A stretch of 64,000 nt of DNA from an uncultured Candidatus Peribacteria bacterium (lineage in GTDB: Bacteria > Patescibacteriota > Gracilibacteria > JAHISY01), in contig CAYVMX010000003.1 of the NCBI GenBank assembly GCA_964452725.1, forward strand, positions 6,670 to 70,669. The letters run 5' to 3'. Shown piece after piece: positions 4,754 to 60,660 of this stretch. The translations under genes and the position numbers were made by a program. Every line of letters begins with the position of its first letter. Positions within the stretch are counted from its first letter, which is position 1. The notes under the pieces are model-generated. The model worked only from the letters and a program-made list of their open reading frames with translations, had not been told where the DNA came from and ran no database searches.

Positions 4754-4923
4754 TGGTGCGCCAGGAGGGGTTCGAAGTTAGCTGTATGGTCGTATTAGTC
4801 CCCAGCACAGTTTGCGGTGCGCACCGGCATGATAGTCCAGATTAAAACCTTGTGCCTTTCGAGTTTCTCGACACTCGCTAGTTCTCCACGCAGAACATCC
4901 CACCTGTGGTGGGATAGCCTGTA
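4754..4923 (-). repeat. tRNA-3'-linked element, copy A: 147-nt insert plus a 23-nt repeat of the tRNA-Arg(UCG) 3' end
   Basis: 4754-4776 is identical to 4924-4946 (tggtgcgccaggaggggttcgaa). The insert carries the hairpin tcccacc-acag-gtggga, GTTCTGCGTGG, the palindrome CGGTGCGCACCG (4815-4826) and the terminus ACAGCTAAC. Confidence 0.85.
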
Positions 4924-6424: not shown

Positions 6425-7277
6425 TCTTCAAAGAAAAATCTAAAGCAGGACTGCTGTGCGTGAGCGCGCCGAGCGAGACATAATCTGCACCAGTTTTGAG
6501 ATAATGCTTGGCATTTTTGGTAGTGATATTGCCAGAGGCCTCAAGTAATATCTTGGGGTTGATCGCACGGAGTTTGGGTATGAGTTTTTGGAGTTTGGCT
6601 GGTGTGAAGTTGTCGAGCAAGAGGATTAGGTTCTTAGAATCCTGAAAGTACTTGGCTATTTTAGTAGCTAGTTTGGTCGTGTTGGTTTCGATCTCGAAAG
6701 GTTCACGAGTTGCGATTTGCTGCCAGCAGGTTGGGTCTAGCGCGAGGTGGTTGTCTTTGACGAGGATTTGGTCACTCAGACTCAATCGGTGTGAAAGTCC
6801 CCCACCGAGCACGACCGCACGACAGTCGAGTAGCCCGAGTGGGGTCTTGCGCGTGGCGGCGATTTTATTTTTACCGACTTGTTTTACTACATCGGCAGTG
6901 GCGGTAGCGATACCCGAGAGTCGTTGAATTAAATTCAAAGCGGTGCGTTCGGTTGTCAAAATATTCAGTGCGCTGCCGGTGAGTCGTGCTACGATCTCGC
7001 CGCGTTTTATCTGCGCACCATCACGTTTACGCTTTGTGATTTTTACTTTGTGTTTCCCCCAAAAGTACTCTGCTTCATCTAGTCCAGCGAGGACACCAGT
7101 TTGTTTGGCTTTGACTATGGCTTTTACTTTGGCGTGCGGATTTTTTAGCAGCGTGGTGGTGTTGTCGCCTGCGCCGATATCGGCGCGGTAGATCAGCTCA
7201 AGTAGCTCACTGGTGAATTTGCGATAAGTAGGGTTTTTCAATGTGAGCCGGGCGGACTGGCGAGCGGAGGGTTTCAT
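6414..7277 (-). CDS. nadC: Nicotinate-nucleotide (quinolinate) pyrophosphorylase
   Basis: TRKTPLGLL, VKDNH and LLDNF motifs typical of QPRTase. Overlaps the nadB start by 11 nt. Confidence 0.9.
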   Translation of the reverse strand: MKPSARQSARLTLKNPTYRKFTSELLELIYRADIGAGDNTTTLLKNPHAKVKAIVKAKQTGVLAGLDEAEYFWGKHKVKITKRKRDGAQIKRGEIVARLTGSALNILTTERTALNLIQRLSGIATATADVVKQVGKNKIAATRKTPLGLLDCRAVVLGGGLSHRLSLSDQILVKDNHLALDPTCWQQIATREPFEIETNTTKLATKIAKYFQDSKNLILLLDNFTPAKLQKLIPKLRAINPKILLEASGNITTKNAKHYLKTGADYVSLGALTHSSPALDFSLKIAN

Positions 7278-21699: not shown

Positions 21700-22230
21700 T
21701 TAGCGTAGTAGTCCGACTCCGAGAGCGAGTGCAATGACAGCTATGACAGCGAAGCCAACTAGCAGCACGCTGTTTTTTATTTTTAGCGCATTGAGATTAT
21801 CTTTGAGTGAGGCGGTTTCTTTTTGGAGTTCATCTTCACGTTGTTTGTACTCCAGTAGTGGCACGGAGGCCTTTACTTGTGCTTCTAGCTGACCGACACG
21901 AAAGCTGGCAGCTTCAAGCTTCTCCTGCTTAGCTTTGAGGTCTGTATTAGCTTCTTCGTAGAGTTTTTGAAAGACCTTTTCTTCACTACTGGGCTGGACT
22001 GTGATACGTTCGGCTCGCGGCTCGGCAGTAGCATTACTGTGTGATTCTGATTTAGTTTTGGGTTTTTTTACGGTTAGTTGTCCTAGTTCGCCAGCATGGA
22101 CAAAGATCGCACGACCCTGTGTTTTGTATTTCAATTTACCAGAGCGTAGCCAGCGATCGAGTGTACGGGTAGACACACCGAGCTGATCGGCGGCATCTTC
22201 ACGCGAGACTGAATACTGGCTGACGGACAT
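21700..22230 (-). CDS. Membrane-anchored helix-turn-helix (excisionase/MerR-like) protein with a coiled coil
   Basis: The start is taken at MSVSQYSV. HTH QLGVSTRTLDRWLRSGKL, a central coiled coil and a C-terminal TM segment VLLVGFAVIAVIALALGVGLL. Confidence 0.6.
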   Translation of the reverse strand: MSVSQYSVSREDAADQLGVSTRTLDRWLRSGKLKYKTQGRAIFVHAGELGQLTVKKPKTKSESHSNATAEPRAERITVQPSSEEKVFQKLYEEANTDLKAKQEKLEAASFRVGQLEAQVKASVPLLEYKQREDELQKETASLKDNLNALKIKNSVLLVGFAVIAVIALALGVGLLR

Positions 22231-22293
22231 GTCTAGACGTAAAATAGCACTTCCAAAACTACTTAGCAAGGGCTGAGAATGTCTGGTAGACAG

Positions 22294-24740: not shown

Positions 24741-24935
24741 GCTAGGTTATCTCGCCGTAGGCGGGGGTGTTCTAGCTGGCAATCCTACTGTGATAGAAGC
24801 TGGAAACGTACAAAGCTTGAATTAGCACTACCGTATCGGGGCTGCCCCGTGTACAGACTTCGCTACCGTACAATCAAAAAGCTAGCTTCGACTCCTGGTG
24901 GGGACACCAGCTAGGTTATCTCGCCGTAGGCGGGG
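24741..24935 (+). repeat. tRNA-3'-linked element, copy B: insert plus a 49-nt repeat of the tRNA-Arg(CCU) 3' end and trailer
   Basis: 24718-24766 is identical to 24887-24935. Contains the hairpin ctcgcc-gtag-gcgggg, GTTCTAGCTGG, GAATTAGCACTACCGTATCGG, the stem-loop CGGGG-CTG-CCCCG (24837-24849) and the terminus GTACAATCAAAAAGCTAGC. Confidence 0.85.
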
Positions 24936-24945
24936 CGAATCTTAG

Positions 24946-25119
24946 TGGCGGAAGGGAAGGGATAGTCGCTACGCTCTCCTGCTGCGTCGCTCACAATCAA
25001 GCACATACTGCGCGTGGCTTGTTGTTCGCTATCCTCGCAGGTCGAACCCATGCAAGCACAGGGTGCTCACCAATCCCCTGCCACAACAAAATCTCCACCC
25101 TGTGGCGGAGAACTTGTCA
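24946..25119 (-). repeat. tRNA-3'-linked element, copy C: 156-nt insert plus an 18-nt repeat of the tRNA-Ser 3' end
   Basis: 24946-24963 is identical to 25120-25137 (tggcggaagggaagggat). In tRNA orientation it starts with the hairpin ctccgcc-acag-ggtggag and ends GAGCGTAGCGACT. It is the most divergent copy. Confidence 0.75.
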
Positions 25120-25209
25120 TGGCGGAAGGGAAGGGATTCGAACCCTCGGTACGGTTGCCCGCACACACGCTTTCCAAGCGTGCGCCTTCGACCACTCGGC
25201 CACCCTTCC
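25120..25209 (-). tRNA. tRNA-Ser (anticodon GGA), long variable arm, CCA encoded
   Basis: Reverse complement: ggaagggtggccgagtggtcgaaggcgcacgcttGGAaagcgtgtgtgcgggcaaccgtaccgagggttcgaatcccttcccttccgcca. Confidence 0.93.
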
Positions 25210-25278
25210 GTTTTAGATTGTGATGTTAAAAAAACGAGGCACTCCTGCCACGTTTTGTTTGTGACAGGGCTTACCTTA

Positions 25279-25494
25279 CTAGCTCTCGGAGGAAGTAGCT
25301 GCTTCTTTGATCTTACGCGTGCGCGCAGGTTTCTTGCTCGTGCGTAGGCAGGCGGCGCAGATCTTTTGCTTGATGCCCTCGATACGCTTGGAGATGATGT
25401 TGGGCAGGAAGCGGCGTTTGGTGTGGCGTTTGCTGTGGCTGACGTTATTGCCACTGCGTGGACGTTTGCCACAGGTATCACAGACATTACTCAT
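25279..25494 (-). CDS. rpmB: 50S ribosomal protein L28
   Basis: [32 protein letters not shown] is the L28 signature. Confidence 0.92.
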
Positions 25495-32624: not shown

Positions 32625-33137
32625 TTGGCATCAAAACAAAATCAGCTCGTCATCAAAAAAAATCCTGAACCGTCACAGGTTTTGCATGTGTTTCAATCGC
32701 CTGAGTTTCTTCAGTATGAGCGTGATACTACTTGGTATGCTGGAGCTGGTGTTTTTACAGTTTTGCTTGTGGCGATAGGTATCGTTACTCACGCACTTTC
32801 GCTAGTGGTGGCGTTTTTACTCGCAATCGCGGTGTATTTCCTCATCCACCAGCATCCACCACGCATGATCGATGTTCGGATCACACCAGACGGTATTTAT
32901 CACGGTGAGGAGTTTTTTGCCTTTGGCGAGATCAAACACTTTTGGTTCATCCATGAGCCGCCCTATGTCGCCGATCTCAAGATACGCCTCAAGAGAGCCT
33001 GGCAGCCGATTCGTACTATTCATATCTACGGGCAGGATCTCGCCCAGCTACGAGCAGTCTTCGAGCCATATGTCACTGAGCTACCCGATCAAAAAGAATC
33101 CTTCCCCGATCTCCTAATCCGTGCAATGCGCCTCTAG
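32625..33137 (+). CDS. Hypothetical membrane protein (two TM segments plus a small soluble domain)
   Basis: TTG start. TM pair WYAGAGVFTVLLVAIGIV / LSLVVAFLLAIAVYFLI. First gene of a tightly spaced three-gene unit. Confidence 0.6.
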   Translation: MASKQNQLVIKKNPEPSQVLHVFQSPEFLQYERDTTWYAGAGVFTVLLVAIGIVTHALSLVVAFLLAIAVYFLIHQHPPRMIDVRITPDGIYHGEEFFAFGEIKHFWFIHEPPYVADLKIRLKRAWQPIRTIHIYGQDLAQLRAVFEPYVTELPDQKESFPDLLIRAMRL

Positions 33138-33140
33138 ACT

Positions 33141-34913
33141 ATGGGACTCTCTGCTGCTACCAGTCCGTCACCTCAGTCTCAGTATTTCGACGATCTGTCG
33201 ATTGATACTGATGGCAATTCAGATAATGGTCCTGAGACCAATCTACAAAAGCAACTGAATAATTTAAAAAACAATCCACAAGCGCAAGTTTTAGTGGAAA
33301 AACTCTTGCAATACGAACAACAAATCGCAAATAACACCAGCGGTGAACTAAAAACACTAGCAGCAGAGCTGGCACTTTCATTTGATGCCAATGCCAGACC
33401 TAATGAACGAGCGAGTATAGATATCTTGCGTGACTTGGTAGATCGAGTCCCAGAGAGCCTGACGACCGAGTATTTCACCGAAAATTCAGAGTTACTCGTC
33501 GGCGATTTCAGTATTTTGTTTGATCGCTATCTAAATCCGACTGTCGCAGATGGCTATCAGCAGCTCTTCGCGAGCTTTCGAGCAGCACAGCTAAGCCAAA
33601 TCACGACCGAACTAAAAAACAAAATCCAAACTCAGGTCCAAGCTGGTGATAAGTTGGACGCAGGATTTACCCAGCAGCTAACTGCTGACGTCGACTACCT
33701 ACGCCAGACCAAAGCAGTAGAATTAAAATTACTGGCCAGTAAGGACGGCTCAGCCGAGACTATCAGCCTCGCAGAGCTGAGGGAGGCAGGGATAGAAAAC
33801 CACTCTTCATTTAGTCAAACGTATTTCGAGCTAATGATGCCAGCTGAGTACCCGACACTAGCTGAGCGCAAAGCAAAATTAACAACCTACCTCGAAAATA
33901 TCGCCGAGCGACCCGCTACGGCACACACTAGCGCGAGCCGCGAGCTACTCTATGTCGCTATGCAGCTAGTCGGTGATGGACGTCTGACCGAGCGTGAGAT
34001 GGCACCAGCAGGTGCGACACCAGAGGAGAACCAAATCAGTGCCAAGCTGCGTGCGATTGACTCGCACAAAGTATTCAACGAGACATACGAAGCGGTACTA
34101 AAGGGGTTCAGCTCAGACAGTCCAGAGTACAAAAACCTCCAAGCAGCCTTCGAACAGTCAAGTGACAAAAAGACCAGTAGTGTGAGCGACTTACTCGCGC
34201 TCAAGAGACCAAACAAGCATGAAAGAAAAGAGATCCTAAAGTCGGCAAAAACCGAGGCAGAGCGTACAGAGTTGGACGCACTTATCAGCGATGGTATCCC
34301 GACCAAACTCCTCGCTGCACTCGACCTAGCTCACCGGATCGAGCTAGATCAGCAGGCTGGCTCACTCGATACATCGGGCACATCACTGGGCAAGCACGCC
34401 AATATCAGCAATACGCTCCTCTACCTAGGAGTGAGCAATATCGTTGCGGCTAGTTTGATCATTACGATTATCCAAAATCTCGGCGATCCACTCAGTCTAT
34501 TTACCAATTCGGTCTTCCTCGCCGATGTCGGTATCCTCGGTGCGACAGCACATCACTGGGGCATGCTAGAGCTGGGACCCAAGGCTGGTAAAAAAGAGTT
34601 CAAAACTAAAATAGTCAAATTAGAACAAAATAAAGACCAGACAGTCGCACCACAGGTCAAACAATGGCTCACTGCAATCGACCCAGTTCAATTCAAGCAA
34701 AACTCAGAGCTAGAGCGGTATATCGACGAGCAGGCTCGCGATGGTGTGTATACAGTCGAGGCTGCCGAGCTAAAGTCTTTCTTGCCCAAAGGTGCTGACA
34801 TACCTGTGCTCAACTCTGAGCCCGCCAAACGTCAGCTTTTTCGATTACTCAATCATGCTACACAGTATCACCTAGTGCCGACACGCCAGCTCCTCAAGCT
34901 TTCCAAAAAATAA
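33141..34913 (+). CDS. Hypothetical 590-aa protein, helical, with a C-terminal TM pair
   Basis: Long ORF with normal composition, 3 nt after the previous gene. No recognisable catalytic motif. Confidence 0.65.
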   Translation: MGLSAATSPSPQSQYFDDLSIDTDGNSDNGPETNLQKQLNNLKNNPQAQVLVEKLLQYEQQIANNTSGELKTLAAELALSFDANARPNERASIDILRDLVDRVPESLTTEYFTENSELLVGDFSILFDRYLNPTVADGYQQLFASFRAAQLSQITTELKNKIQTQVQAGDKLDAGFTQQLTADVDYLRQTKAVELKLLASKDGSAETISLAELREAGIENHSSFSQTYFELMMPAEYPTLAERKAKLTTYLENIAERPATAHTSASRELLYVAMQLVGDGRLTEREMAPAGATPEENQISAKLRAIDSHKVFNETYEAVLKGFSSDSPEYKNLQAAFEQSSDKKTSSVSDLLALKRPNKHERKEILKSAKTEAERTELDALISDGIPTKLLAALDLAHRIELDQQAGSLDTSGTSLGKHANISNTLLYLGVSNIVAASLIITIIQNLGDPLSLFTNSVFLADVGILGATAHHWGMLELGPKAGKKEFKTKIVKLEQNKDQTVAPQVKQWLTAIDPVQFKQNSELERYIDEQARDGVYTVEAAELKSFLPKGADIPVLNSEPAKRQLFRLLNHATQYHLVPTRQLLKLSKK

Positions 34914-34914
34914 G

Positions 34915-37212
34915 ATGCTAAAAAAATTCTGCTCCCAGCTTCGATCATACTGCGGACTGACACACCTGCTACTCCTAGTGGTCGTTGTGTTGGCCCTCAT
35001 CGTACTACCCGATAGCACGCTAGCGGCAGATCCAGCGGCTAGTCCTCTCTCAGGATATAACGTCAGCAAGATCGCTGATGGTATCAAGGTCATTGCCTAC
35101 TGGGTAGTTGGTGGTATTTTATTTTTGATTTCGTTTATCGCGATCGGTGTAGGTGATCTCATGGACTCGACCTTCATCTACGATGCTGGCATGGGTGAGA
35201 CGCTCTACACTATGTGGAGTACTATTCGTGACTTCGTCAATATCGGATTCATACTCGCGCTACTCGGCCTAGCGGTGCTCGTGATACTCGGACTGGGAGA
35301 CGAAGGTGGACTCGCGAAACTCAAGAAAATCCTACCCAAGCTCATTATTGGTTTAATACTTGTTAACTTTACATTCTTTGGTACACGGATCGTACTGACT
35401 ACCTCCGATGTCCTCGCGACAGCTATCTTTAGCTTACCCGGTATGGTCAACAAAGTAACTACAGGACCTCCCATTCCACTAAAGACCATTTGTGGTGATC
35501 TCAGCTTGGAGGCGTGTAAGACTCTCAATAGAGACAAGATCCTCTTCTTTTGGAATCCAACTACAAAAAAGGTAGAAGTCCCAGGTGATTTGAGTACAGC
35601 GCTGAAGGAGAGAATAGATCAAATCAATACTAACTACTCTGAAGGTGGTATCTTTGTAAAAGACTTAAGTGCTAAATTTGACAAGAAAAATGCGATGTTT
35701 ACGACGATGCTCTACATGCTCCACGTAGTGGACCTACAACATATCAAATCTCCTCAACAAAACGTCAGTGCAATAGTCGGTTCGTTATTTTCCATTGTCT
35801 TGGCGGTTATGCTCGGCGTGCTTGTCTTTGCGATGGGCTTGGGTTTGATCGTACGTATGGTCGTACTCTGGGTGCTGATCGCACTTTCGCCGATCCTAGT
35901 GTTGGGTTGGGTGTTCAAAGAGCTCGTACCACAAGTCAGCGAAGCTGCTGGCGGTCTAGATCTCGATAAGCAGTTCATCACCAACGCTTTTCTGCCTGTC
36001 TTCATCGCCGTGCCGATGTCGATTGGTTTTACTATGATCTTTGCCGAAGGTACTTTTACACAGATTACGGGTATCTATGGTGCGACGGAAGGTGCGCAAG
36101 TCGCCTTCTTCAAACTCATTTGGCTCGTCGCTGCCTTCGTGATCATCTGGATAGGTACGTTCAAAGCGCTGGGCAAGAGCGAAGCAGTCGGTAAAATAAC
36201 AGAAAAAATCAAAGGTACAGCGGAGGGTTTCGCTGGTGGAGCGATGAAGACGCTGTCGTATATGCCAGTGATACCAGGACTCAGCAAAGACGGCTCTCTG
36301 AGCTCTATCGGTTCTGTGCTTTCGGCACCATCGAAGATCGAAGGCATGCTCGCTGGACAGACGAGTACGCGCTCTCGTGAGATAGCGACACCTATGGCTA
36401 CATCGCTGGGTTATCGTCAGGAGTTCCGTGCTGATAACGCCTTTGCAACGGATGTAAAGGCGAGTAGCAGTATCAAAGATCTGGCACAAGCCATCAAGAC
36501 TCACCACGATAGCAATGGTACAAATGTAACACTGACTCCAACATTAAAAGATAAACTTACTAATATAGGGTTACCCAAAGCTATCGTAAACAGTAGTAAA
36601 GATTTGGCTTCCCTGCTCGCCAATACACAAATCCGTGGTAAGTTGGCTAAAGAAGGTGGAGCTGCCGGTAAGGAAGTCAGTGACAACTATCTGTCTTACA
36701 ACAAAGTATTTAAAGATAGACAAAAAGATGCCGAAGCAGCGAAAAAGGAGACAAGTGCAGCGGCAGCCGCTGGTGCTGGTTCGTTGACAGCTGGCAGCAA
36801 ATATAGCGGGAATGATGTCTCAGGCTCAACAAACGCAGGTATTCAATCTAATGATAGAGATCTTAACTTTTTCACTGGCAATGTTGCTGGTGATAGAGGT
36901 GCGCTGCTTTATAAGCAAGGTGATAAATACCACTATGTCGATAGTACCAAAGCTCAGATCGAGCAACAGCTCAATACAATCACTGACACAAAGTCTGAAT
37001 CTGGCGCTGTCGTGAGTGCGATCAAACATCTGGAGAAAGCGATGGGTACGGGTATGATGATCGATGTAATCAATGCGATGATTGCTCAGATGGATGATGG
37101 AGCAAAGACTGCATGGAAAAGCAAAGCAGGAGGAGATTTCAACAATGAGCTGGACAATAATGATGTCGGAGCCAAGTGGGACGCTGGATCTGGTAAGTTT
37201 GAAAAAAAATAG
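34915..37212 (+). CDS. Polytopic membrane protein, possibly TrbL/VirB6-like, with a long soluble C-terminal tail
   Basis: Signal/anchor sequence, about 8 TM segments in the first 430 aa, and a low-complexity Ala/Gly/Ser/Lys-rich tail. The start is 1 nt after the previous stop. The VirB6 assignment rests on topology and size only. Confidence 0.6.
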   Translation: MLKKFCSQLRSYCGLTHLLLLVVVVLALIVLPDSTLAADPAASPLSGYNVSKIADGIKVIAYWVVGGILFLISFIAIGVGDLMDSTFIYDAGMGETLYTMWSTIRDFVNIGFILALLGLAVLVILGLGDEGGLAKLKKILPKLIIGLILVNFTFFGTRIVLTTSDVLATAIFSLPGMVNKVTTGPPIPLKTICGDLSLEACKTLNRDKILFFWNPTTKKVEVPGDLSTALKERIDQINTNYSEGGIFVKDLSAKFDKKNAMFTTMLYMLHVVDLQHIKSPQQNVSAIVGSLFSIVLAVMLGVLVFAMGLGLIVRMVVLWVLIALSPILVLGWVFKELVPQVSEAAGGLDLDKQFITNAFLPVFIAVPMSIGFTMIFAEGTFTQITGIYGATEGAQVAFFKLIWLVAAFVIIWIGTFKALGKSEAVGKITEKIKGTAEGFAGGAMKTLSYMPVIPGLSKDGSLSSIGSVLSAPSKIEGMLAGQTSTRSREIATPMATSLGYRQEFRADNAFATDVKASSSIKDLAQAIKTHHDSNGTNVTLTPTLKDKLTNIGLPKAIVNSSKDLASLLANTQIRGKLAKEGGAAGKEVSDNYLSYNKVFKDRQKDAEAAKKETSAAAAAGAGSLTAGSKYSGNDVSGSTNAGIQSNDRDLNFFTGNVAGDRGALLYKQGDKYHYVDSTKAQIEQQLNTITDTKSESGAVVSAIKHLEKAMGTGMMIDVINAMIAQMDDGAKTAWKSKAGGDFNNELDNNDVGAKWDAGSGKFEKK

Positions 37213-50001: not shown

Positions 50002-50178
50002 AGAACCTCCGTGGTGGATCGGGTGGGACTTGAAGCTAGCTGCGTGATTGTACTAATTCAAAGTCGGTACACGGTGCGCACCGATACGGCAGAGCTAATC
50101 CCAGCTTTGTGCGGACGTGAGTCCTCGTCCACCACAATCACCACGAAGAACCTTGACACTACGGGTCAAGAACCTCCG
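50002..50178 (-). repeat. tRNA-3'-linked element, copy D: 134-nt insert plus a 33-nt repeat of the tRNA-Lys 3' end and 10 nt of trailer
   Basis: 50002-50034 is identical to 50169-50201. In tRNA orientation: hairpin cttgac-ccgtagt-gtcaag, GGTTCTTCGTGG, GGATTAGCTCTGCCGTATCGG, the palindrome CGGTGCGCACCG (50072-50083), CCGTGTACCGACTT and the terminus GTACAATCACGCAGCTAGC. Confidence 0.85.
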
Positions 50179-53912: not shown

Positions 53913-55943
53913 ATGTCAAAATCAAAAGCTAAATCCGATAAGCCGTTTAAGCTTGTCTCGAAGTTCCAACCCTCCGGAGATCAACCAACTGCAATCGCTC
54001 AGATCATAAAAGGCATGAAAGGTGGTGCTCAAGACCAAACCCTACTCGGTGTGACTGGTTCGGGTAAGACTTTTACGATCGCGAATGTCATCAAAGAACT
54101 CCAGCGACCAGCGCTCATCATCTCGCAAAACAAAACGCTAGCAGCGCAGCTCTGCTCAGAGTTTCGCGAGTTTTTTCCCGACAACTCTGTCCACTATTTC
54201 GTCTCCTACTACGACTACTACCAGCCGGAGGCGTACATGGCAGCGACGGATACTTACATCGAGAAGGATGCGAGTATCAATGAGGAGATCGATAAGTTTC
54301 GCCACGCGGCGACGCACTCGCTCCTCACGCGTAAAGACGTCGTGATTATCGCCTCCGTCAGCTGTATCTATGGTCTGGGTGCGGTGGAGGACTACGAAGC
54401 GATGGCGACGACGCTCGTGCTGGGTGAGACAGTCAAACGCGATGAGTTCCTCCGGCGTTTGGTCGATATGCAGTTCACGCGGGCGCAGATGGACTTCAAG
54501 CGCGGTCAGTTCAATGTCCTCGGTGATACGATCGAGATCTACCCACCCGACGAGGACGGACGCGTGTTGCGCCTCGAGTTTTTCGGTGATGAGCTGGAGC
54601 GTTTGACCATCGCAGATCACTTTACTGGTGAGATTTACGAAGAGTTGAAAGAGTACACGCTTTTCCCTGCCAAGCATGCGGTGACGACGCGTGACAAGAT
54701 CGAAAAGGCGGTGGTTGAAATCCGTAAAGATTTACAAATCCGTTATGAAGAACTCAAAAAAATAGGTAAACCTCTAGAAGCTGAGCGGATCAAAACTCGT
54801 ACCGAGTACGATATCGAGATGTTGCTCGAGGTAGGCTATGTCTCGGGTATTGAGAATTACACACGGTATCTCTCTGGTGCCAAACCTGGTAGTCCGCCGA
54901 GTACGCTTATGGATTATTTCCCCGATGATTACTTGCTTTTCATCGATGAGTCGCACGTCACCGTACCACAGATCGGGGGTATGTACGGTGGCAACGAGTC
55001 GCGCAAGCGTAATCTCGTCGAGCATGGCTTCCGTTTGCCGAGTAGTTTCGACAATCGCCCTTTAAATTTTCAAGAATTCGAAAAACGTATGGGTCGGACA
55101 GTCTATATCTCAGCGACTCCATCAGAACACGAACTAAAAAAGTCGGGTAAGGCAAACATCGCCGAGATGATCGTCCGTCCGACTGGTCTACTAGATCCAG
55201 AGATCATAGTACGTCCGAGCAAGCACCAGATCGACGAGATCATGGAGGAGATCCGCCTGACTATCGAGCGTGGTGAACGGATACTGCTCACGACTCTGAC
55301 GAAGAAGTCAGCCGAAGATCTGACCGAGTTCTTGACTGAGCGCGGTGTACGTGTGCGCTATCTCCACTCTGATGTCGATACTATGCAGCGGATCGAGATT
55401 CTGCGCGATCTGCGTCTGGGTAAGTTCGACGTGCTCGTCGGTATCAATCTCCTGCGGGAAGGACTGGATCTCCCCGAGGTCAGCACGATCTGTATCCTCG
55501 ACGCTGACAAGGAAGGCTTCCTCCGTAGTACCACAGCTCTGATCCAGACCATCGGACGCGCCGCGCGGAATGTAAACGGTCATGTGATTATGTTCGCTGA
55601 TAGAGAGACCAGATCTATGAAAGCCGCTATCGGTGAGACGAATCGCCGTCGCAAGATCCAAGAGCAGTACAATAAAAAGCATGGCATCACTCCTGCGACG
55701 ATCAAAAAAGCTGTGAGCGACATAGCCGAGCACAAATATAGCCTAGAAGAAACACCCGAGATCAAGCCTGATGAGATCCCGACAGAGGAGATCGCTACGG
55801 TCATCAAGCAGCTGGAAAACAAGATGGACATCGCCTCACAGACTATGGAGTTTGAACGGGCAGGTGAGCTGCGTGATCAGATCGAGGCACTACGTGCTCT
55901 CCAGGGTGAAGGCAAAAAGCACCTGAGAAAGAAACAAAAATAG
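53913..55943 (+). CDS. uvrB: Excinuclease ABC subunit B
   Basis: GVTGSGKTFT Walker A, helicase motifs and the C-terminal UVR domain EFERAGELRDQIEALR. Confidence 0.97.
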   Translation: MSKSKAKSDKPFKLVSKFQPSGDQPTAIAQIIKGMKGGAQDQTLLGVTGSGKTFTIANVIKELQRPALIISQNKTLAAQLCSEFREFFPDNSVHYFVSYYDYYQPEAYMAATDTYIEKDASINEEIDKFRHAATHSLLTRKDVVIIASVSCIYGLGAVEDYEAMATTLVLGETVKRDEFLRRLVDMQFTRAQMDFKRGQFNVLGDTIEIYPPDEDGRVLRLEFFGDELERLTIADHFTGEIYEELKEYTLFPAKHAVTTRDKIEKAVVEIRKDLQIRYEELKKIGKPLEAERIKTRTEYDIEMLLEVGYVSGIENYTRYLSGAKPGSPPSTLMDYFPDDYLLFIDESHVTVPQIGGMYGGNESRKRNLVEHGFRLPSSFDNRPLNFQEFEKRMGRTVYISATPSEHELKKSGKANIAEMIVRPTGLLDPEIIVRPSKHQIDEIMEEIRLTIERGERILLTTLTKKSAEDLTEFLTERGVRVRYLHSDVDTMQRIEILRDLRLGKFDVLVGINLLREGLDLPEVSTICILDADKEGFLRSTTALIQTIGRAARNVNGHVIMFADRETRSMKAAIGETNRRRKIQEQYNKKHGITPATIKKAVSDIAEHKYSLEETPEIKPDEIPTEEIATVIKQLENKMDIASQTMEFERAGELRDQIEALRALQGEGKKHLRKKQK

Positions 55944-55959
55944 ATTAAAATATTCACAC

Positions 55960-56036
55960 GGACCCTTAGCTCAGTTGGTTAGAGCAGCGGGCTCATAACC
56001 TGTTGGTCCCTGGTTCAAGTCCAGGAGGGTCCACCA
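55960..56036 (+). tRNA. tRNA-Met (anticodon CAU; elongator-type, could be tRNA-Ile2 if lysidinylated), CCA encoded
   Basis: ggaccct/agggtcc acceptor stem with a paired 1-72 position and anticodon loop ctCATaa. It lacks the three G-C pairs characteristic of an initiator anticodon stem. Confidence 0.9.
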
Positions 56037-56226
56037 CGTGGGTTCTCCCGCCGTAGGCGGGAGGTTCTACGTAGTGCGATGCTGCGGTAGTGCACCAGAT
56101 CGCCACAGAGATCGGATTGAACCTGCCGTATCGGTGCGCACCGTAGCGAGGAGCGTAGCGACAAGCGACCACAAACCCTGATTGAATAACAATCAAACAG
56201 CTAGCTAAGTCCAGGAGGGTCCACCA
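56037..56226 (+). repeat. tRNA-3'-linked element, copy E1 (full, ends with a 20-nt repeat of the tRNA-Met 3' end)
   Basis: Hairpin ctcccgcc-gtag-gcgggag, GGTTCTACGTAG, GGATTGAACCTGCCGTATCGG, the palindrome CGGTGCGCACCG (56132-56143) and the terminus AACAATCAAACAGCTAGCT, followed by aagtccaggagggtccacca. Confidence 0.85.
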
Positions 56227-56342
56227 CGTGGGTTCTCCCGCCGTAGGCGGGAGGTTCTACGTAGTGCGATGCTGCGGTAGTGCACCAGATCGCACAAAGA
56301 TCGAATTAGACCTGCCGTACCGGTGCGCACCGTAGCGAGGAG
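56227..56342 (+). repeat. tRNA-3'-linked element, copy E2 (tandem, 3'-truncated)
   Basis: 56207-56293 is identical to 56017-56103 (87/87). The next ~49 nt carry about 6 differences, including one indel. The second palindrome is at 56321-56332. Similarity ends at 56342 without a terminal tRNA fragment. Confidence 0.8.
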
Positions 56343-56386
56343 TGGAAGCTGTGTGATATAGTACGACTAGTTGGTCGTGAGTTTAT

Positions 56387-56998
56387 TTGACGCTTCTTAT
56401 GCAGTTCCAAGGTAAAAAAGTTTGTTGTCGCGAGATCCTGAAGCACGAAACTAAAAAACATGTTTTCGTTAAGTTTTTGTTGGTGGTGTTAGTTTTTTTG
56501 GGGTACTTCGGTTTCATCGCTAGTCAGTATGGGCTCAAAGATGGGTTTTTTGTAACGGCTTTGACTTGGTCTTTTTTTGTACTTTGTACTCCTGTTGCTG
56601 ACGCTGGTTTTTTGTTGGATTTTCCATTTCGACTGATTACTCGGATCAGAATGTTGTTTTCTGAGATAGTAGTTTGGGGTATTGCGATTTCATTGAATTT
56701 CTACGCCTTTTTTGTTCATCCTGAGATTTACGACAAAACGGAGCTACTACTACTTTTTAAACATATCTTGGGGCAGCCCTTTCCATTTTGGGCGATTATT
56801 TTTGTTTCATTGATCGGTACTTTTATGTCTATTCAGTTTGGAGATGAGCTGATGGATAAAGTAAAACACAAAGATCGAGATCTATATAAGCGGCAAAAAC
56901 ATCGCTTTAAATTTTGGGGAATGATATTTATAGTGATTTTGTCGATTATTCTATACGACTTTTTGCTCAAGCAGCTAGGAGTGGAGCTACCTATTTAG
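56387..56998 (+). CDS. Hypothetical polytopic membrane protein
   Basis: Five to six TM segments in an AT-richer stretch than the surroundings. The start is uncertain (TTG 56387 or ATG 56399). Confidence 0.55.
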   Translation: MTLLMQFQGKKVCCREILKHETKKHVFVKFLLVVLVFLGYFGFIASQYGLKDGFFVTALTWSFFVLCTPVADAGFLLDFPFRLITRIRMLFSEIVVWGIAISLNFYAFFVHPEIYDKTELLLLFKHILGQPFPFWAIIFVSLIGTFMSIQFGDELMDKVKHKDRDLYKRQKHRFKFWGMIFIVILSIILYDFLLKQLGVELPI

Positions 56999-57117: not shown

Positions 57118-58218
57118 ATGGCTAAAGCAAGCGCTACTTCGATGTTTACTGCGGCGGGTTTAAAAGTAGTACCAACTGAGTCTAGTACACCAGCTTGGGA
57201 TTTTGATGAGTTGTTGGATCTGGCAGTAGAAAAAGAAGCCAGTGATATTCATTTTGGTGCTACTAGTAAGATCGCTCTCAGGATTTTTGGTGAGATTCGT
57301 TTTGTCGAGACTGCTGGTGTCTTGGATCAAGATACAGCTGAACGACTGATTATAGGTTTGATCAAAAATAAAACTAAACAGCAAGAGCTATTTCAAAAAC
57401 GAGAGTTGGATTTTAGTTATCAACATTCCGATGGTACGGTTTTTCACTGCAATGCTTTTTTTCGTCGGGGACATCTCTCGATAGTCATGCGACGGATACC
57501 CAAGTCTATACCGACACTTGATCAGCTAGGTCTGCCGCCAGCTGTGAAGATGTTTTGCCAGTCTAGGCAGGGTTTTTTATTGGTTTGTGGTCCAGCCAAT
57601 AGTGGTAAATCTGTAACCATCAGCGCGATCCTAGAGCAGATCAATGAGTCGCGGGTAGCCCATGTAGTGACGATCGAAGATCCGATCAAATATCTCTTTA
57701 CCGATAAGCAATGTATTTTTTCACAACGTGAGTTGTACAGCGATGCTAGTTGTTTTGATGCGGCTATGCGGGCGACACTACGTCAGGATTCGAATATAGT
57801 CATGATCGACAAGATGCGTGATCAGACAACGTTAAATGCCGCTATGGACCTTTGTGAGTCTGGCAACTTGGTGCTGAGTACGTTGAACGCTACTAGTGCA
57901 TCGCAGACCATCAAAAGGCTGGTACAGTCTGTCGGTGTCGACCAGCGAGAGCCAATGTTGTGTCGTATCGCAGATAATCTAGTGGGTATCATCAGCCAGC
58001 GTCTACTACCCAAAGTCGGTGGTGGACTAGTCGGCGTCTACGAGGTCATGATCGCCAATAAGGTCATCCGAGAAGCGATCAGTCAGGGGCAGCTCACCAA
58101 ACTAAATAGTATTATTACCAACTCCGAAATCCTCGGTATGGTCAATATGCATAAGTTTGCTGAAGCACTGGTCGAACGAGGTGTCGTATCACCAGACTCC
58201 TTGAAGCTTATTCATTAG
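57118..58218 (+). CDS. PilT-like type IV pilus/secretion ATPase paralog with degenerate catalytic motifs
   Basis: PilT architecture with the Asp box TIEDPIK. Walker A is GPANSGKSV. Walker B is IVMIDKMRD (the canonical form is ILVGEMRD). The His box is SGNLVLSTLNAT (the canonical form is TGHLVxSTLHT). Confidence 0.8.
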   Translation: MAKASATSMFTAAGLKVVPTESSTPAWDFDELLDLAVEKEASDIHFGATSKIALRIFGEIRFVETAGVLDQDTAERLIIGLIKNKTKQQELFQKRELDFSYQHSDGTVFHCNAFFRRGHLSIVMRRIPKSIPTLDQLGLPPAVKMFCQSRQGFLLVCGPANSGKSVTISAILEQINESRVAHVVTIEDPIKYLFTDKQCIFSQRELYSDASCFDAAMRATLRQDSNIVMIDKMRDQTTLNAAMDLCESGNLVLSTLNATSASQTIKRLVQSVGVDQREPMLCRIADNLVGIISQRLLPKVGGGLVGVYEVMIANKVIREAISQGQLTKLNSIITNSEILGMVNMHKFAEALVERGVVSPDSLKLIH

Positions 58219-58220
58219 TT

Positions 58221-59417
58221 TTATTGTTCCCAGTCCCAGTTGGGTTTTTCTATCGCTGTGATACCAGCCGTGTCGACCGTGAGTTGGATTTTTTTGTTGC
58301 GACTGGCGTTTTTCCAGCTGTGTTTGAGCACCATGAGAGTGGCGTCGTCTTTTTGGATATAGTCACGGTCTATAAAGTTGGCAAAGTCGCGTGAGATACT
58401 ATCGAAAATACTTTTGGCTTTGTTGCGACTGGCGTGACGCTCTACGCTCTGACGTAGATTTTCCATACCGTACATTTTGCCATGTTTGTTTTCGGCTTCG
58501 GTGATGCCATCGGTGAAGAGTACGATGACATCGTTTGGTGCGAGTGCGATCTCTGCTTCGTGGATTTTGTCACTGGTGTCGGGTATGAGTCCTAGTGCGA
58601 TACCACCGGTCTTGAGAGCTTTGCATTTACCAGTGGCAGCGCGATAGATCAAGATGTGTTCGTGACCGCAGCCAGTGTAATGAAGCTTTTGGGCTTGGTG
58701 TTCCCAGCGTAGCATGACCAGTGTCATAAACATCGAAGAGGTAGTTTTGGGTGTCAAAAATTGATTGACCTTATTCAAGATCTCGCGAGGACTCTCGTGT
58801 AGTGAGGTAAACGTATGGATCAAAACGTTGACCATCGACATGAGTAGTCCGGCCTGTAGACCGTGACCAGTCGCATCTCCGATGTAAAAAAGCGTTGAAT
58901 TTTTGAGTGGGATAATATCGAAGTTGTCACCACCGACCTCGGTAGCTGGTCTGGTTTTTACGATGATATCTAGTCCTGGCACTTGGGGGGATTTTTTTGG
59001 GAGGAGCTGACGTTGAAAATCGCCAGCAAAGTTTAATTCTTCAGTGAGTCGGTTACGATCTTCAATATCGGTGCTGACCTTTTCTAGGCTGGTGATCATA
59101 GTGTTGAAGAATTCTTCTAGTACGCGGACTTCTTTAATATTATTAGTTAGTTTTAGTTTTTGATAATTTTTGCCTTGAAGTATGGCTTGCATCTGCGTGG
59201 TGACGCGCTGGATTGGTCGTACGATCTGGACGATGAAGAAAACCAATAGTGAGCCTAGGAGTATGCAAAAAAGCCAAAACAACCATTCAAATGTAGTGGT
59301 AGCTGTGTTTATCGTAGCGAACTGCCGAAAGGTTATGCTCAGAGCTAGACCTATGAGTGCCAGTCCGCCAGTCAGGAGTACTATTTTTTGGGTCAGGCTA
59401 AAGTGGGTGGACTGCAT
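58221..59417 (-). CDS. Membrane-bound HAMP-domain PP2C/SpoIIE-family serine phosphatase
   Basis: Two N-terminal TM segments, a HAMP-like linker and SpoIIE motifs VGGDNFDII, GDATGHGLQAGLLM and LFTDGITEA. Confidence 0.85.
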   Translation of the reverse strand: MQSTHFSLTQKIVLLTGGLALIGLALSITFRQFATINTATTTFEWLFWLFCILLGSLLVFFIVQIVRPIQRVTTQMQAILQGKNYQKLKLTNNIKEVRVLEEFFNTMITSLEKVSTDIEDRNRLTEELNFAGDFQRQLLPKKSPQVPGLDIIVKTRPATEVGGDNFDIIPLKNSTLFYIGDATGHGLQAGLLMSMVNVLIHTFTSLHESPREILNKVNQFLTPKTTSSMFMTLVMLRWEHQAQKLHYTGCGHEHILIYRAATGKCKALKTGGIALGLIPDTSDKIHEAEIALAPNDVIVLFTDGITEAENKHGKMYGMENLRQSVERHASRNKAKSIFDSISRDFANFIDRDYIQKDDATLMVLKHSWKNASRNKKIQLTVDTAGITAIEKPNWDWEQ

Positions 59418-59423
59418 GGTGGG

Positions 59424-60191
59424 TTAGCTTTGGGCTGGGGTGGGTTGAGCTGGTTGGTTGGTAGGTCGTATGATCGGTTGGGCGAGATCAGTACTTTTTA
59501 TTTGGAGGTCGTGTTCTGCTGGGTTGTGTATTTGTTGTTGTCTGGCAGTTAGAGGATTGTAGATGCCATAAAACATTTCGATTAGTTCGGCTGTTGGCAT
59601 TTGGCTGACGGTCAGGCCGCAGTTTTCTAGATTACTTTTGACAGATTCAACGTGTTGGTTGAGTGCTTTGACTATGCGACCAAACTCTTTTTGGCGTTTT
59701 TGGAAAGCAGTGACGCTGTCGGCAGGGTGGATATAATCCCAAAACTGACCAAAGATGCTAGCCGACTTGGTACGGACAGGGTCGTACGGTATGACGACAT
59801 AAAATTGTTTTTCCATGATGTCGGCAAACTCTACGAGTTTGCGAATATATTCAGTGTATTCAAAAACTTGATTACGTAGGAGCTCGTTTTTTTGGTTTTT
59901 GCCGATGGTTTTTAATTTGCTGAGGTAGTTGCTGATGTCGAGTTTTTTACTACGTACGATGACCTGTACGGGGAATTCTAGTGAGTTCAAAAAGTTTTGG
60001 TAGGCGGCAGCGAGTGAGTTTTGTTCTTCTTCGGACTTGAGATTTACATTGATGCTGCCGACAGTAAGTACGGCGCGAAGTCCGCCGTTTTTTAGTACGA
60101 TGGTGTCGTCGCGGATCTCAGCGATACGCATGTAAAGCTGCGTGCTGGCGTTGGGATCTTTTTGTTTGGCTTGGTGGATAGTATCGGACAT
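59424..60191 (-). CDS. VirB4/TrsE-type N-terminal domain protein without an ATPase domain
   Basis: RIAEIRDDTIVLKNGGLRAVLTVGSINVNLKSEEEQNSLAAAYQNFLNSLEFPVQVIVRSKKLDISNYL follows the N-terminal pattern of Gram-positive conjugative VirB4 homologues. No Walker motifs are present, and the protein ends in a Pro/Gln-rich tail. Confidence 0.6.
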   Translation of the reverse strand: MSDTIHQAKQKDPNASTQLYMRIAEIRDDTIVLKNGGLRAVLTVGSINVNLKSEEEQNSLAAAYQNFLNSLEFPVQVIVRSKKLDISNYLSKLKTIGKNQKNELLRNQVFEYTEYIRKLVEFADIMEKQFYVVIPYDPVRTKSASIFGQFWDYIHPADSVTAFQKRQKEFGRIVKALNQHVESVKSNLENCGLTVSQMPTAELIEMFYGIYNPLTARQQQIHNPAEHDLQIKSTDLAQPIIRPTNQPAQPTPAQS

Positions 60192-60201
60192 ATGGTTTGA
60201 G

Positions 60202-60660
60202 TTATTTGGTGGGGGTGGTGAGCTGATCATCGGTGCCACCGAGACCACCAGTATCGAGCACGTGGCTGATGCTGCCGAGTTTATTTAGGTTGGCGGTGGA
60301 TTTTTTTACTGTTTTTTTTATTGGTGTGTTGGTGATTTTTTGGGTCGGTGCTTGAAAGAGTCCAATATCATCAGCTGATTTTACCCAGAGGCGTTTGGGT
60401 TCGTTTAAGTAGCGTTCTAGCATCAATAAAATCCAGTGTATAAACGGTACGCCGTTGATTTTGAAAAAGGCAATGGCAATCGTCAGTAGTGAGATAATCA
60501 CCACGGGTGGTAGCCAAATCTCGGGATTTTGATGTTGTAGTCCGATATAAAAGGTATAAGCAAAACCACCGCCGATACCACAGATAATGAGCTGACGGAG
60601 CGTCATAAAAGGGAGGATTTTATCCTCGATTTGGACGTTCTGTGGGACTTTGAACTGCAT
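60202..60660 (-). CDS. PrgI-family (VirB3-like) membrane protein
   Basis: MQFKVPQNVQIEDKILPFMTLRQLIICGIGGGFAYTFYI is the typical PrgI N-terminus followed by two TM segments. It lies directly upstream of the VirB4-N-like gene. Confidence 0.65.
   Translation of the reverse strand: MQFKVPQNVQIEDKILPFMTLRQLIICGIGGGFAYTFYIGLQHQNPEIWLPPVVIISLLTIAIAFFKINGVPFIHWILLMLERYLNEPKRLWVKSADDIGLFQAPTQKITNTPIKKTVKKSTANLNKLGSISHVLDTGGLGGTDDQLTTPTK

Follow-up and report, generated by a model that had tools for sequence, protein, structure and literature searches.

The 64,000-nucleotide stretch analyzed here (hereafter the window; positions 6,670 to 70,669 of contig CAYVMX010000003.1 from an uncultured Candidatus Peribacteria bacterium) contains, immediately behind its tRNA-Met gene, two consecutive copies of a short non-coding element, with a repeat of the 3' end of this tRNA between them. 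On balance, this locus is probably a head-to-tail array, with a variable number of units, of an element that is specific for tRNA tails, and is reshaped by exchange between the repeated tracts, each comprising the tail and the adjoining hairpin. The unit consists of a structured element of approximately 145-170 nt, starting with a 15-bp hairpin after CCA and ending with CAGCTAGC, and of a copy of the tail of its own tRNA. Each unit would re-create the junction of tRNA tail and hairpin at its far end, and whole units would be added or removed by exchange between the tRNA tail and the tail copy, through unequal crossing-over, through gene conversion or because an enzyme re-integrates a unit that comes from the same locus. 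At tRNA-Met, the proximal unit would be the complete one, the distal unit would have lost its canonical 3' end along with the tail copy, and the 87 nucleotides that are identical in the two copies would represent the tract exchanged or converted most recently. The family as a whole would be non-autonomous, mobile or once-mobile, transcribed together with the tRNAs and folded on the tRNA-sense strand; its members would be placed by an enzyme encoded elsewhere, and insertion would duplicate the tRNA tail.

The anatomy of the locus, given in the preliminary description of this sequence as tRNA-Met, a full element, a 20-nt tail and a second copy, is directly visible and is borne out both by the coordinates of the individual features and by a repeat finder. 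The features are as follows:

55960 to 56036, + strand: tRNA-Met(CAT) gene with encoded CCA (ARAGORN; Rfam tRNA, 68.3 bits)
56017 to 56036, + strand: first tail copy, i.e., the last 20 nt of tRNA-Met
56037 to 56205, + strand: element copy 1, full length (covariance model R1, 126 bits, model positions 1-146)
56037 to 56071, + strand: 5' hairpin (P1) of copy 1, from the first base after CCA (covariation in 7 copies)
56104 to 56131, + strand: 28-nt patch of differences (alignment of copies 1 and 2, clustering test)
56132 to 56143, + strand: palindromic hairpin CGGTGCGCACCG of copy 1 (covaries in the tRNA-Arg-CCT copy)
56154 to 56178, + strand: 25-nt block present in copy 1 and absent from the other canonical copies (alignments)
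56200 to 56205, + strand: 3' end of copy 1, CAGCTAGC (given also as ...AACAATCAAACAGCTAGC)
56206 to 56226, + strand: tail repeat, T56206 followed by 20 nt (56207-56226) identical to the 3' end of tRNA-Met
56227 to 56342, + strand: element copy 2, the portion alignable to copy 1, without a tail repeat after it
56227 to 56261, + strand: P1 of copy 2 (motif occurrence)
56321 to 56332, + strand: palindromic hairpin of copy 2 (repeat and motif occurrence)

The repeat finder identifies a direct repeat of 87 nt with 100% identity (56017-56103 vs 56207-56293) at a spacing of 190, in agreement with the two 190-nt units reported previously, and a second direct repeat of 50 nt with 90% identity and a 1-nt register shift (56104-56153 vs 56293-56342). 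The hairpin and palindrome motifs occur exactly twice each, compared with zero occurrences expected from shuffles, and no third copy of the tRNA-Met tail is present in the window even with up to 3 mismatches allowed.

Copies 1 and 2 are 78% identical overall and 96% identical over the first 137 nt. The six differences between them include, as described previously, one indel (56104) and five substitutions (56108, 56115, 56119, 56120 and 56131); the proposed layout of an identical block followed by a diverged one, however, does not hold. All six differences fall within 28 nt (56104-56131; p~0.001 for the clustering, p~0.002 for the lack of differences in the first 87 nt), and the flanks are identical for 87 nt on one side and for 22 nt on the other, so that the pattern is that of a patch. 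The patch lies in the CACAAAG..GAATTAG motif, in which copy 2 keeps the family consensus. The abrupt end attributed to copy 2 stands insofar as the similarity to copy 1 stops at 56342 and no tail follows; however, the covariance model aligns copy 2 end to end (56227-56371, 92 bits), setting its TGTGATATAGTACGA..CTAGT against the 3' block of the family. The part of this alignment past 56342, which is the sole indication of a continuation of copy 2, is weak; judging from the model, copy 2 may be a decayed near-full unit without a tail repeat rather than a clean truncation.

A pair consisting of a template and a variable repeat of a diversity-generating retroelement was also considered for the two copies. 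Three of the five substitutions are located at adenines of copy 2 and one is reversed; this possibility was rejected because the differences are not adenine-specific. Furthermore, the copies are non-coding, and no reverse transcriptase is encoded in the window.

The element is not confined to tRNA-Met. Each of the five tRNA genes of the window has an encoded CCA, directly followed by a 144-170-nt segment of this family and then by a repeat of the tail of that tRNA. Matches to a covariance model built from five full copies are all linked to tRNA genes, with none elsewhere in the 64 kb; the copy at tRNA-Ser is too divergent to be detected with model R1, yet shows the same hairpin and layout. In addition to the Met locus, the members are:

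4754 to 4923, - strand: behind tRNA-Arg(TCG), element 4923..4777 and 23-nt tail repeat 4776..4754 (131 bits)
24741 to 24935, + strand: behind tRNA-Arg(CCT), element 24741-24886, 23-nt tail 24887-24909 and start of a second unit 24910-24935 (128 bits)
24946 to 25119, - strand: divergent member behind tRNA-Ser(GGA), element 25119..24964 and 18-nt tail 24963..24946 (recognized by layout and hairpin)
50002 to 50178, - strand: behind tRNA-Lys(TTT), element 50178..50035, 23-nt tail 50034..50012 and start of a further unit 50011..50002 (143 bits)

The tail repeat spans 23 nt (T54-A76 of the tRNA) at tRNA-Arg-TCG, tRNA-Arg-CCT and tRNA-Lys, 20/21 nt at tRNA-Met and 18 nt at tRNA-Ser, and at each of these five different tRNAs it matches the local one. 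The start of a further unit that follows the tail repeat is 26 nt long at tRNA-Arg-CCT and 10 nt at tRNA-Lys. The well-aligned set consists of four segments and both Met copies, which share a common layout: a hairpin from the first base after CCA, a variable stretch, the motif GCACAAAG..GAATTAGC, the palindromic hairpin (CGGTGCGCACCG, replaced by CGGGGCTGCCCCG in the Arg-CCT copy) and the 3' end GTACAATCA..CAGCTAGC. Alignment of the element ends (variable 4 nt followed by GGTTCT... vs ...CAGCTAGC) reveals no terminal inverted repeats. There is no conserved open reading frame (ORF) in the family: a small coding ORF was considered for the element, and the frame seen in the Lys copy is broken, as judged by eye, by stop codons in the Arg-CCT copy.

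Several further observations concern the neighborhood of the Ser copy. The Arg-CCT array and the Ser unit converge on opposite strands, with 10 nt (24936-24945) between the Arg remnant and the Ser tail. A mechanically called ORF of 152 aa (25029-25487, - strand) overlaps tRNA-Ser and its element; the real gene is probably a short one encoding ribosomal protein L28, as in the related contigs L078 and L081. A GAGGAGCGTAGCGAC-like block is found both in Met copy 1 (56148-56162, + strand) and at the 3' terminus of the Ser element (24965-24979, - strand), where it substitutes for both the usual CAGCTAGC terminus and the initial 5 nt of the tail repeat; the Met and Ser blocks match with 2 mismatches, which is only marginally better than chance.

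Comparison of 7 distinct copies directly reveals covariation in P1: 92% of the cells are paired, and 10 of the 15 pairs show changes on both sides, a level that is reached by none of 500 shuffles and compares with at most 53% in slid controls. Two G.U pairs are conserved, one in all seven copies and the other in six of the seven. The Lys unit folds better in the sense orientation (-62.6 kcal/mol, z -2.85) than in the antisense orientation (-55.2 kcal/mol, z -1.70). The conserved G.U pairs, together with the better fold of the sense strand, indicate that the folded strand is the tRNA-sense strand, as RNA or single-stranded DNA. The fold predicted for the element brings its 5' and 3' ends next to each other.

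The segment directly after P1 starts with TGG in 5 of the 7 copies and tends to be complementary to the tail of the cognate tRNA. Among 720 permutations, the total duplex energy is best for the cognate assignment; the shuffle tests for individual copies are weak, with p=0.03 reached by Lys alone, and this segment is the best duplex site inside the element for Lys and Ser only. Pairing between the TGG-led segment and the tRNA tail is, accordingly, at most suggestive. Such pairing, if real, would lengthen the hairpin across the CCA and, in a processed RNA, would bring the 3' tail copy beside the 5' end.

Two sites flank the Met array that might direct its transcription:

55923 to 55951, + strand: candidate sigma-70-like promoter upstream of tRNA-Met (consensus scan, 9 of 12 matches; a pattern match only)
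56362 to 56389, + strand: terminator-like hairpin with a T-rich tail after copy 2, the sole such site in the scanned region 55850-56450

No recurrent promoter-like site was found inside the units. The promoter-like site upstream, the single terminator-like site after copy 2 and the lack of a recurrent internal promoter thus support co-transcription, so that the element is likely to be transcribed together with the tRNA. A search of the whole window against Rfam at the gathering threshold detects tRNAs only; with E<=10, the region 55900-56500 yields the tRNA and two below-threshold matches at the level of chance, and no match to a ribozyme.

Related genomes show the presence and absence of the element at orthologous tRNA genes. 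Homologs of UvrB and CarB place the window in the Peregrinibacteria/Peribacteria-Gracilibacteria part of the candidate phyla radiation (CPR). In the related contig L011 (92% UvrB identity, 80% nucleotide identity), the conserved uvrB-tRNA-Met junction contains a single unit (2249-2395) that is followed by a 21-nt tail repeat and then by unrelated flank; L011 and L012 share this state of one full unit with a tail repeat at tRNA-Met. The junction of element and tail repeat differs by one base, GCTAGC/CAAGTCC in L011 vs GCTAGC/TAAGTCC in the window (T56206 corresponds to C56 in L011), and the element bodies are 58-62% identical. In L013 and L068, the Met site is empty, i.e., the tRNA is present, and the element and the repeat are absent; such relatives are found at 82% and 73% UvrB identity. 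At tRNA-Ser, contig L081 (77% CarB identity, syntenic) carries a canonical unit ending with GAGCTAGC and a 25-nt tail repeat, and its tRNA-Arg-CCT site is empty. The tRNA-Ser tails differ between the window and L081, and in each case the downstream repeat follows its own tRNA. Given that the Ser repeats track their own tRNA and that the L011 junction is nearly identical, the tail repeat appears to have been kept in step with the tRNA over long periods, either through selection or through repeated exchange with the tRNA tail. Because orthologous tRNA sites in relatives are entirely empty, the tRNAs evidently work without the element.

These comparisons bear on the possibility that the element is a trailer RNA of the host on each tRNA gene, i.e., a signal for processing or termination, or a device that senses the tRNA 3' end, and that the Met and Lys arrays are ordinary slippage duplications. 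Such a function would account for the presence of an element at all five tRNAs, for the maintenance of the hairpin by compensatory changes in old copies that are only 50-66% identical, for a tail repeat that still matches the tRNA tail exactly next to element bodies that have drifted to 58-62% identity, and for the preference of the TGG segment that follows the hairpin in 5 of 7 copies for its own tRNA tail (the best of 720 permutations). However, a host function is hard to square with orthologous sites that lack the element altogether and with the exact T54-A76 repeat at five different tRNAs, which is a signature of insertion; the anti-tail signal, moreover, is weak for individual copies (p=0.03 for Lys alone). 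On the whole, this explanation appears unlikely.

The same repeats could be viewed as leftover att sites, namely, attL/attR remnants, similar to cis-mobilizable elements (CIMEs), of islands integrated in the T-loop of tRNAs by tyrosine integrases, with the tandem arrangement resulting from accretion. A direct repeat of the 3' part of a tRNA starting from the T-loop is the classical signature of integration, tandem accretion is known for elements that integrate into tRNA genes, and, in a circular drawing of the unit, the conserved element parts lie on either side of the tail repeat. Nevertheless, a single family occupies five tRNAs, each with its own matching tail; no integrase is encoded nearby; CAGCTAGC, which precedes T54 within the unit, shows no mimicry of the T-stem; and the hairpin covaries in the manner of RNA, with conserved G.U pairs. 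The match of the tail to the local tRNA at five tRNAs is easy to explain if insertion duplicates T54-A76, whereas an att core carried by the element is hard to reconcile with it because a jump from tRNA to tRNA would leave the tail of the donor or a hybrid tRNA. Thus, an origin from att sites seems quite improbable.

Differences in the number of units are observed directly among assemblies of the same population. Contigs chosen for the presence of the exact T2SSE protein of the window are 99.7-100% identical to it. In two of these, L071 (VAPK010034996.1) and L074 (Logan SRR6439371), uvrB and tRNA-Met lead straight into copy 2 and then into the same downstream flank, so that both are exactly 190 nt shorter than the window. 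L072 (SRR6439372) begins inside the repeat, 27 nt before the point at which the copies diverge, and L075 begins inside copy 2. The comparison of this locus across related genomes that was proposed in the preliminary description gives 0 copies in L013 and L068, 1 copy in L011/L012, L071 and L074, and 2 copies in the window. Arrays at other loci, the existence of which had been raised there as well, are exemplified by tRNA-Lys: contig VAPM010091730.1 (L030 = L083) from a sister metagenome contains, at 2320-2644, a partial unit, a tail repeat, a full unit, a tail repeat and a 10-nt remnant, i.e., at least two units compared with one in the window. The array ends with the same 10-nt remnant whether it has one unit or two. 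The Lys units of this contig differ at two A/G positions, both within the CACAAAG..GRATTAG motif, which, being the site of differences between both the Met and the Lys copies, may be a hotspot. Taken together, 0, 1 or 2 copies occur at tRNA-Met, and the Lys locus demonstrates that arrays are not confined to tRNA-Met.

The disagreement between assemblies of one population by exactly one 190-nt unit would also be expected if either state were an assembly artefact, with the two-unit path being a chimera or expansion that joins strain haplotypes through the 87-nt repeat, or with the short contigs being collapses; contigs L012, L024, L030, L072 and L075 indeed break inside or beside elements. However, the 87-nt repeat is shorter than the usual Illumina reads, and the Lys locus provides independent evidence in the form of a second array with two units that are 2 substitutions apart, which makes a chimera less likely. 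The junction of CAGCTAGCT, the 20-nt tail and the hairpin (CGTGGGTTCT) must exist in reads for k>21, and the k=31-based contig L074 passes without interruption through the repeat at both of its ends, which, according to what we take to be the Logan assembly method, is unexpected for a loop with full coverage. An artefact is, therefore, an improbable source of the two states.

Two additional observations pertain to other tRNA loci in these data. In L077 (VAPM010559384.1), the region ~2135-2185, which corresponds to ~24850-24895 of the window, contains 5 of the 8 mismatches of this contig to the window (four A-to-C and one T-to-G), clustered where the Arg-CCT element ends (3') and in its tail repeat; this cluster could reflect either sequencing error at a hairpin-rich site or true strain variation. 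The Logan contigs at the other tRNA loci break inside tRNAs and yield nothing further.

The question then becomes how units are gained and lost. The main rival to exchange within the array is fresh insertion from a same-locus donor. In its general form, fresh insertion implies that a trans-acting enzyme adds a complete unit, excised or copied from the tRNA-Met locus of another genome or from another locus, directly after the CCA and pushes the decayed unit outward, in a manner comparable to the addition of new units to a CRISPR array or to tandem accumulation of casposons. The allele in which the tRNA is followed by copy 2 indeed occurs alone in the same population; the distal remnants at tRNA-Lys (10 nt) and tRNA-Arg-CCT (26 nt) retain the hairpin end and lack the 3' end and the tail; the terminal 10-nt remnant at tRNA-Lys is the same with one unit or two; and the sites in some relatives are empty. 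The closest relative of copy 1, however, is copy 2 (96% identity over 137 nt), and every other copy compared is at most 62% identical to copy 1, so that a donor from a different tRNA locus is unlikely and the donor would have to be an allele of the Met locus. Furthermore, an allele with copy 1 alone is not observed, no enzyme is identified in the window, and the short allele could equally be a deletion product of the long one. Fresh insertion is, accordingly, a possible but distinctly less probable route.

The data are compatible with insertion from a donor at the same locus, with unequal exchange and with conversion. Recombination of the long Met allele across its two 87-nt blocks would leave precisely the short one, which is equally the expected substrate for a later addition of a complete unit at the tRNA. 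The sharing of the junction with L011 points to the proximal unit, with its tail repeat, as the old one; if so, the distal unit arose by duplication and subsequently lost its 3' end. The 28-nt patch between identical flanks requires conversion or a mosaic of two alleles. Successive insertions into the regenerated target and gene conversion, the two options put forward in the preliminary description, are both compatible with the present data; the regenerated tail and hairpin would remain a functional target.

Several points weigh against a unit-number-variable array of a mobile element. The patch, along with copies that are barely alignable past 56342, is not predicted by a simple recent duplication, and a tail of 20-23 nt is short for RecA-type exchange. 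The paralogs are 50-66% identical to one another, and so there is no sign of recent bursts of transposition; mobility of the family is deduced from its distribution. Sequence specific to copy 1 is seen in the window's own assembly only, with L072 merely beginning near the fork. In the Ser-type copies, the hairpin is followed by a U-rich sequence, and these could simply be terminators. Finally, no integrase, transposase, HUH enzyme, Cas1 or reverse transcriptase is encoded among the ~50 ORFs of the window; hence, the enzyme, if any, would act in trans from elsewhere in the genome.

With regard to candidate enzymes, the contig of a relative with 75% UvrB identity (P0008, JGI 3300072015) encodes two Y1_Tnp-like (HUH) proteins within 10 kb of uvrB, which may matter if the elements move as single strands. 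In the window, three consecutive ORFs (32625-37212, + strand; 170, 590 and 765 aa) show no match above the threshold in Pfam, NCBIfam or PHROGs; a trio of similarly sized ORFs is located beside carB in L081 and in the P0124 contig. A 189-aa protein (21700-22269, - strand) contains an excisionase-type HTH_17 domain and is found in the same place in relatives, with no adjoining recombinase. Neither the trio nor the HTH_17 protein gives any recombinase, reverse transcriptase or transposase signal. Downstream of the Met array (57118-60660), the window encodes a T2SSE-type ATPase, a SpoIIE phosphatase, a TraC/VirB4-N-like protein and a PrgI-like protein, a secretion- or conjugation-like set that is conserved in L011.

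Searches for the element elsewhere were as follows. A scan of genome contigs with TGCCGTAYCGGTGCGCACCG produces 10 matches, all in unrelated high-GC genomes and none beside a tRNA, which are attributable to chance. Among the 43 loci from a scan of metagenome contigs, the real ones are L024 and L030, both from the population of the window. Searches of viral contigs with the hairpin pattern and with the circle/tandem-junction pattern give chance matches or none, and a BLASTN search with the Lys unit finds no match in the phage and plasmid collections. No description of such elements was found in the literature on tRNA repeats of Peregrinibacteria, on miniature or tRNA-downstream elements or on structured RNAs of Patescibacteria. 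We classify the family as tRNA-end-specific mobile elements of a new form; that it is categorically new appears doubtful.

An unlikely possibility is that the family represents a new class of tRNA-end-specific elements that act through a folded single strand. The RNA of the element would be cut from the tRNA co-transcript at the CCA by tRNA 3'-end processing, the TGG... segment after the 5' hairpin would pair with the 3'-terminal tail copy of the same molecule, and the 5' and 3' ends would meet on a continuous splint, so that the RNA could be circularized; this RNA, or an equivalent single DNA strand, would then be copied back behind tRNA genes with duplication of T54-A76. If this is the case, the family would be a bacterial counterpart of retrozymes and short interspersed nuclear elements (SINEs), or else a transposon guided by the tRNA tail. 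As a variant, the TGG-led segment might sense the free NCCA end of the cognate tRNA, as T-box leaders do.

If the proposed view of the family is correct, apparently all tRNA genes of a small CPR genome have had their 3' ends colonized by a non-coding element of ~150 nt that leaves the tRNAs undisrupted and keeps each tail copy in step with its tRNA. Such a compact and highly specific system would ride on the small genes that the cell transcribes most strongly. The tRNA-Met locus, which along with the Lys array shows units being gained or lost among nearly identical strains, therefore offers the best handle on the mechanism from read data. In practical terms, repeats of the element cause assemblies of such genomes to break or collapse where tRNA genes lie.

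Comparison with known systems reveals partial likenesses to several of them. With casposons and CRISPR acquisition, the family shares a long target duplication and head-to-tail arrays with a degenerate distal end. The target duplication of casposons is 14-15 bp, CRISPR duplicates a whole repeat, and some casposons target the 3' end of a tRNA. Unlike in these systems, there are no terminal inverted repeats, no cas1 or polB in the window and no duplication of 14-15 bp, and the inserts are homologous structured units rather than spacers; the resemblance lies in the long duplication and the tandem layout alone. Miniature inverted-repeat transposable elements derived from DDE-transposase elements are distinct in having inverted terminal repeats, which are lacking here, and a short fixed duplication in place of one of 18-23 nt.

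The family further resembles IS200/IS605 elements, palindrome-associated transposable elements (PATEs) and repetitive extragenic palindromic (REP) elements or REPINs with their REP-associated tyrosine transposases (RAYTs) in being small and non-coding, without inverted repeats, and with strand-specific sub-terminal hairpins (P1 at the 5' side, the palindrome in the 3' half, and G.U pairs on the sense strand only); in addition, insertion occurs directly 3' of a short fixed sequence (here CCA). Those elements are mobilized in trans but insert without duplicating their target; each unit of the present family, by contrast, has a tail repeat of 18-23 nt as its boundary, and no Y1_Tnp is encoded in the window. 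SINEs, R2-type elements and retrozymes are likewise non-coding and structured, depend on the promoter of a host RNA gene, as the present family would by its placement, and show tandem units and duplications of variable length (here 18-23 nt); the adjacency of the 5' and 3' ends in the predicted fold is a further likeness. The present family differs from them in being bacterial, in having partial copies that lack the 3' end rather than 5'-truncated ones, and in showing no ribozyme match; we know of no reverse transcriptase associated with it.

The closest known kind is the tRNA-integrating island together with its integrase-less derivatives, i.e., CIMEs and island remnants. Unlike these, the elements described here are non-coding and only 145-170 nt long, have no integrase, or integrase-bearing relative with the same att arms, among the ~50 ORFs of the 64-kb window, and begin with a covarying hairpin that abuts the CCA; moreover, instead of one family per specific tRNA, a single family uses at least five tRNAs (Arg-TCG, Arg-CCT, Ser, Lys and Met), each with a matching tail. 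The shared features are the position at the tRNA 3' end, the direct repeat of the tail from the T-loop (18-23 nt, at all five tRNAs), the intact tRNA, tandem accretion, and presence or absence among relatives.

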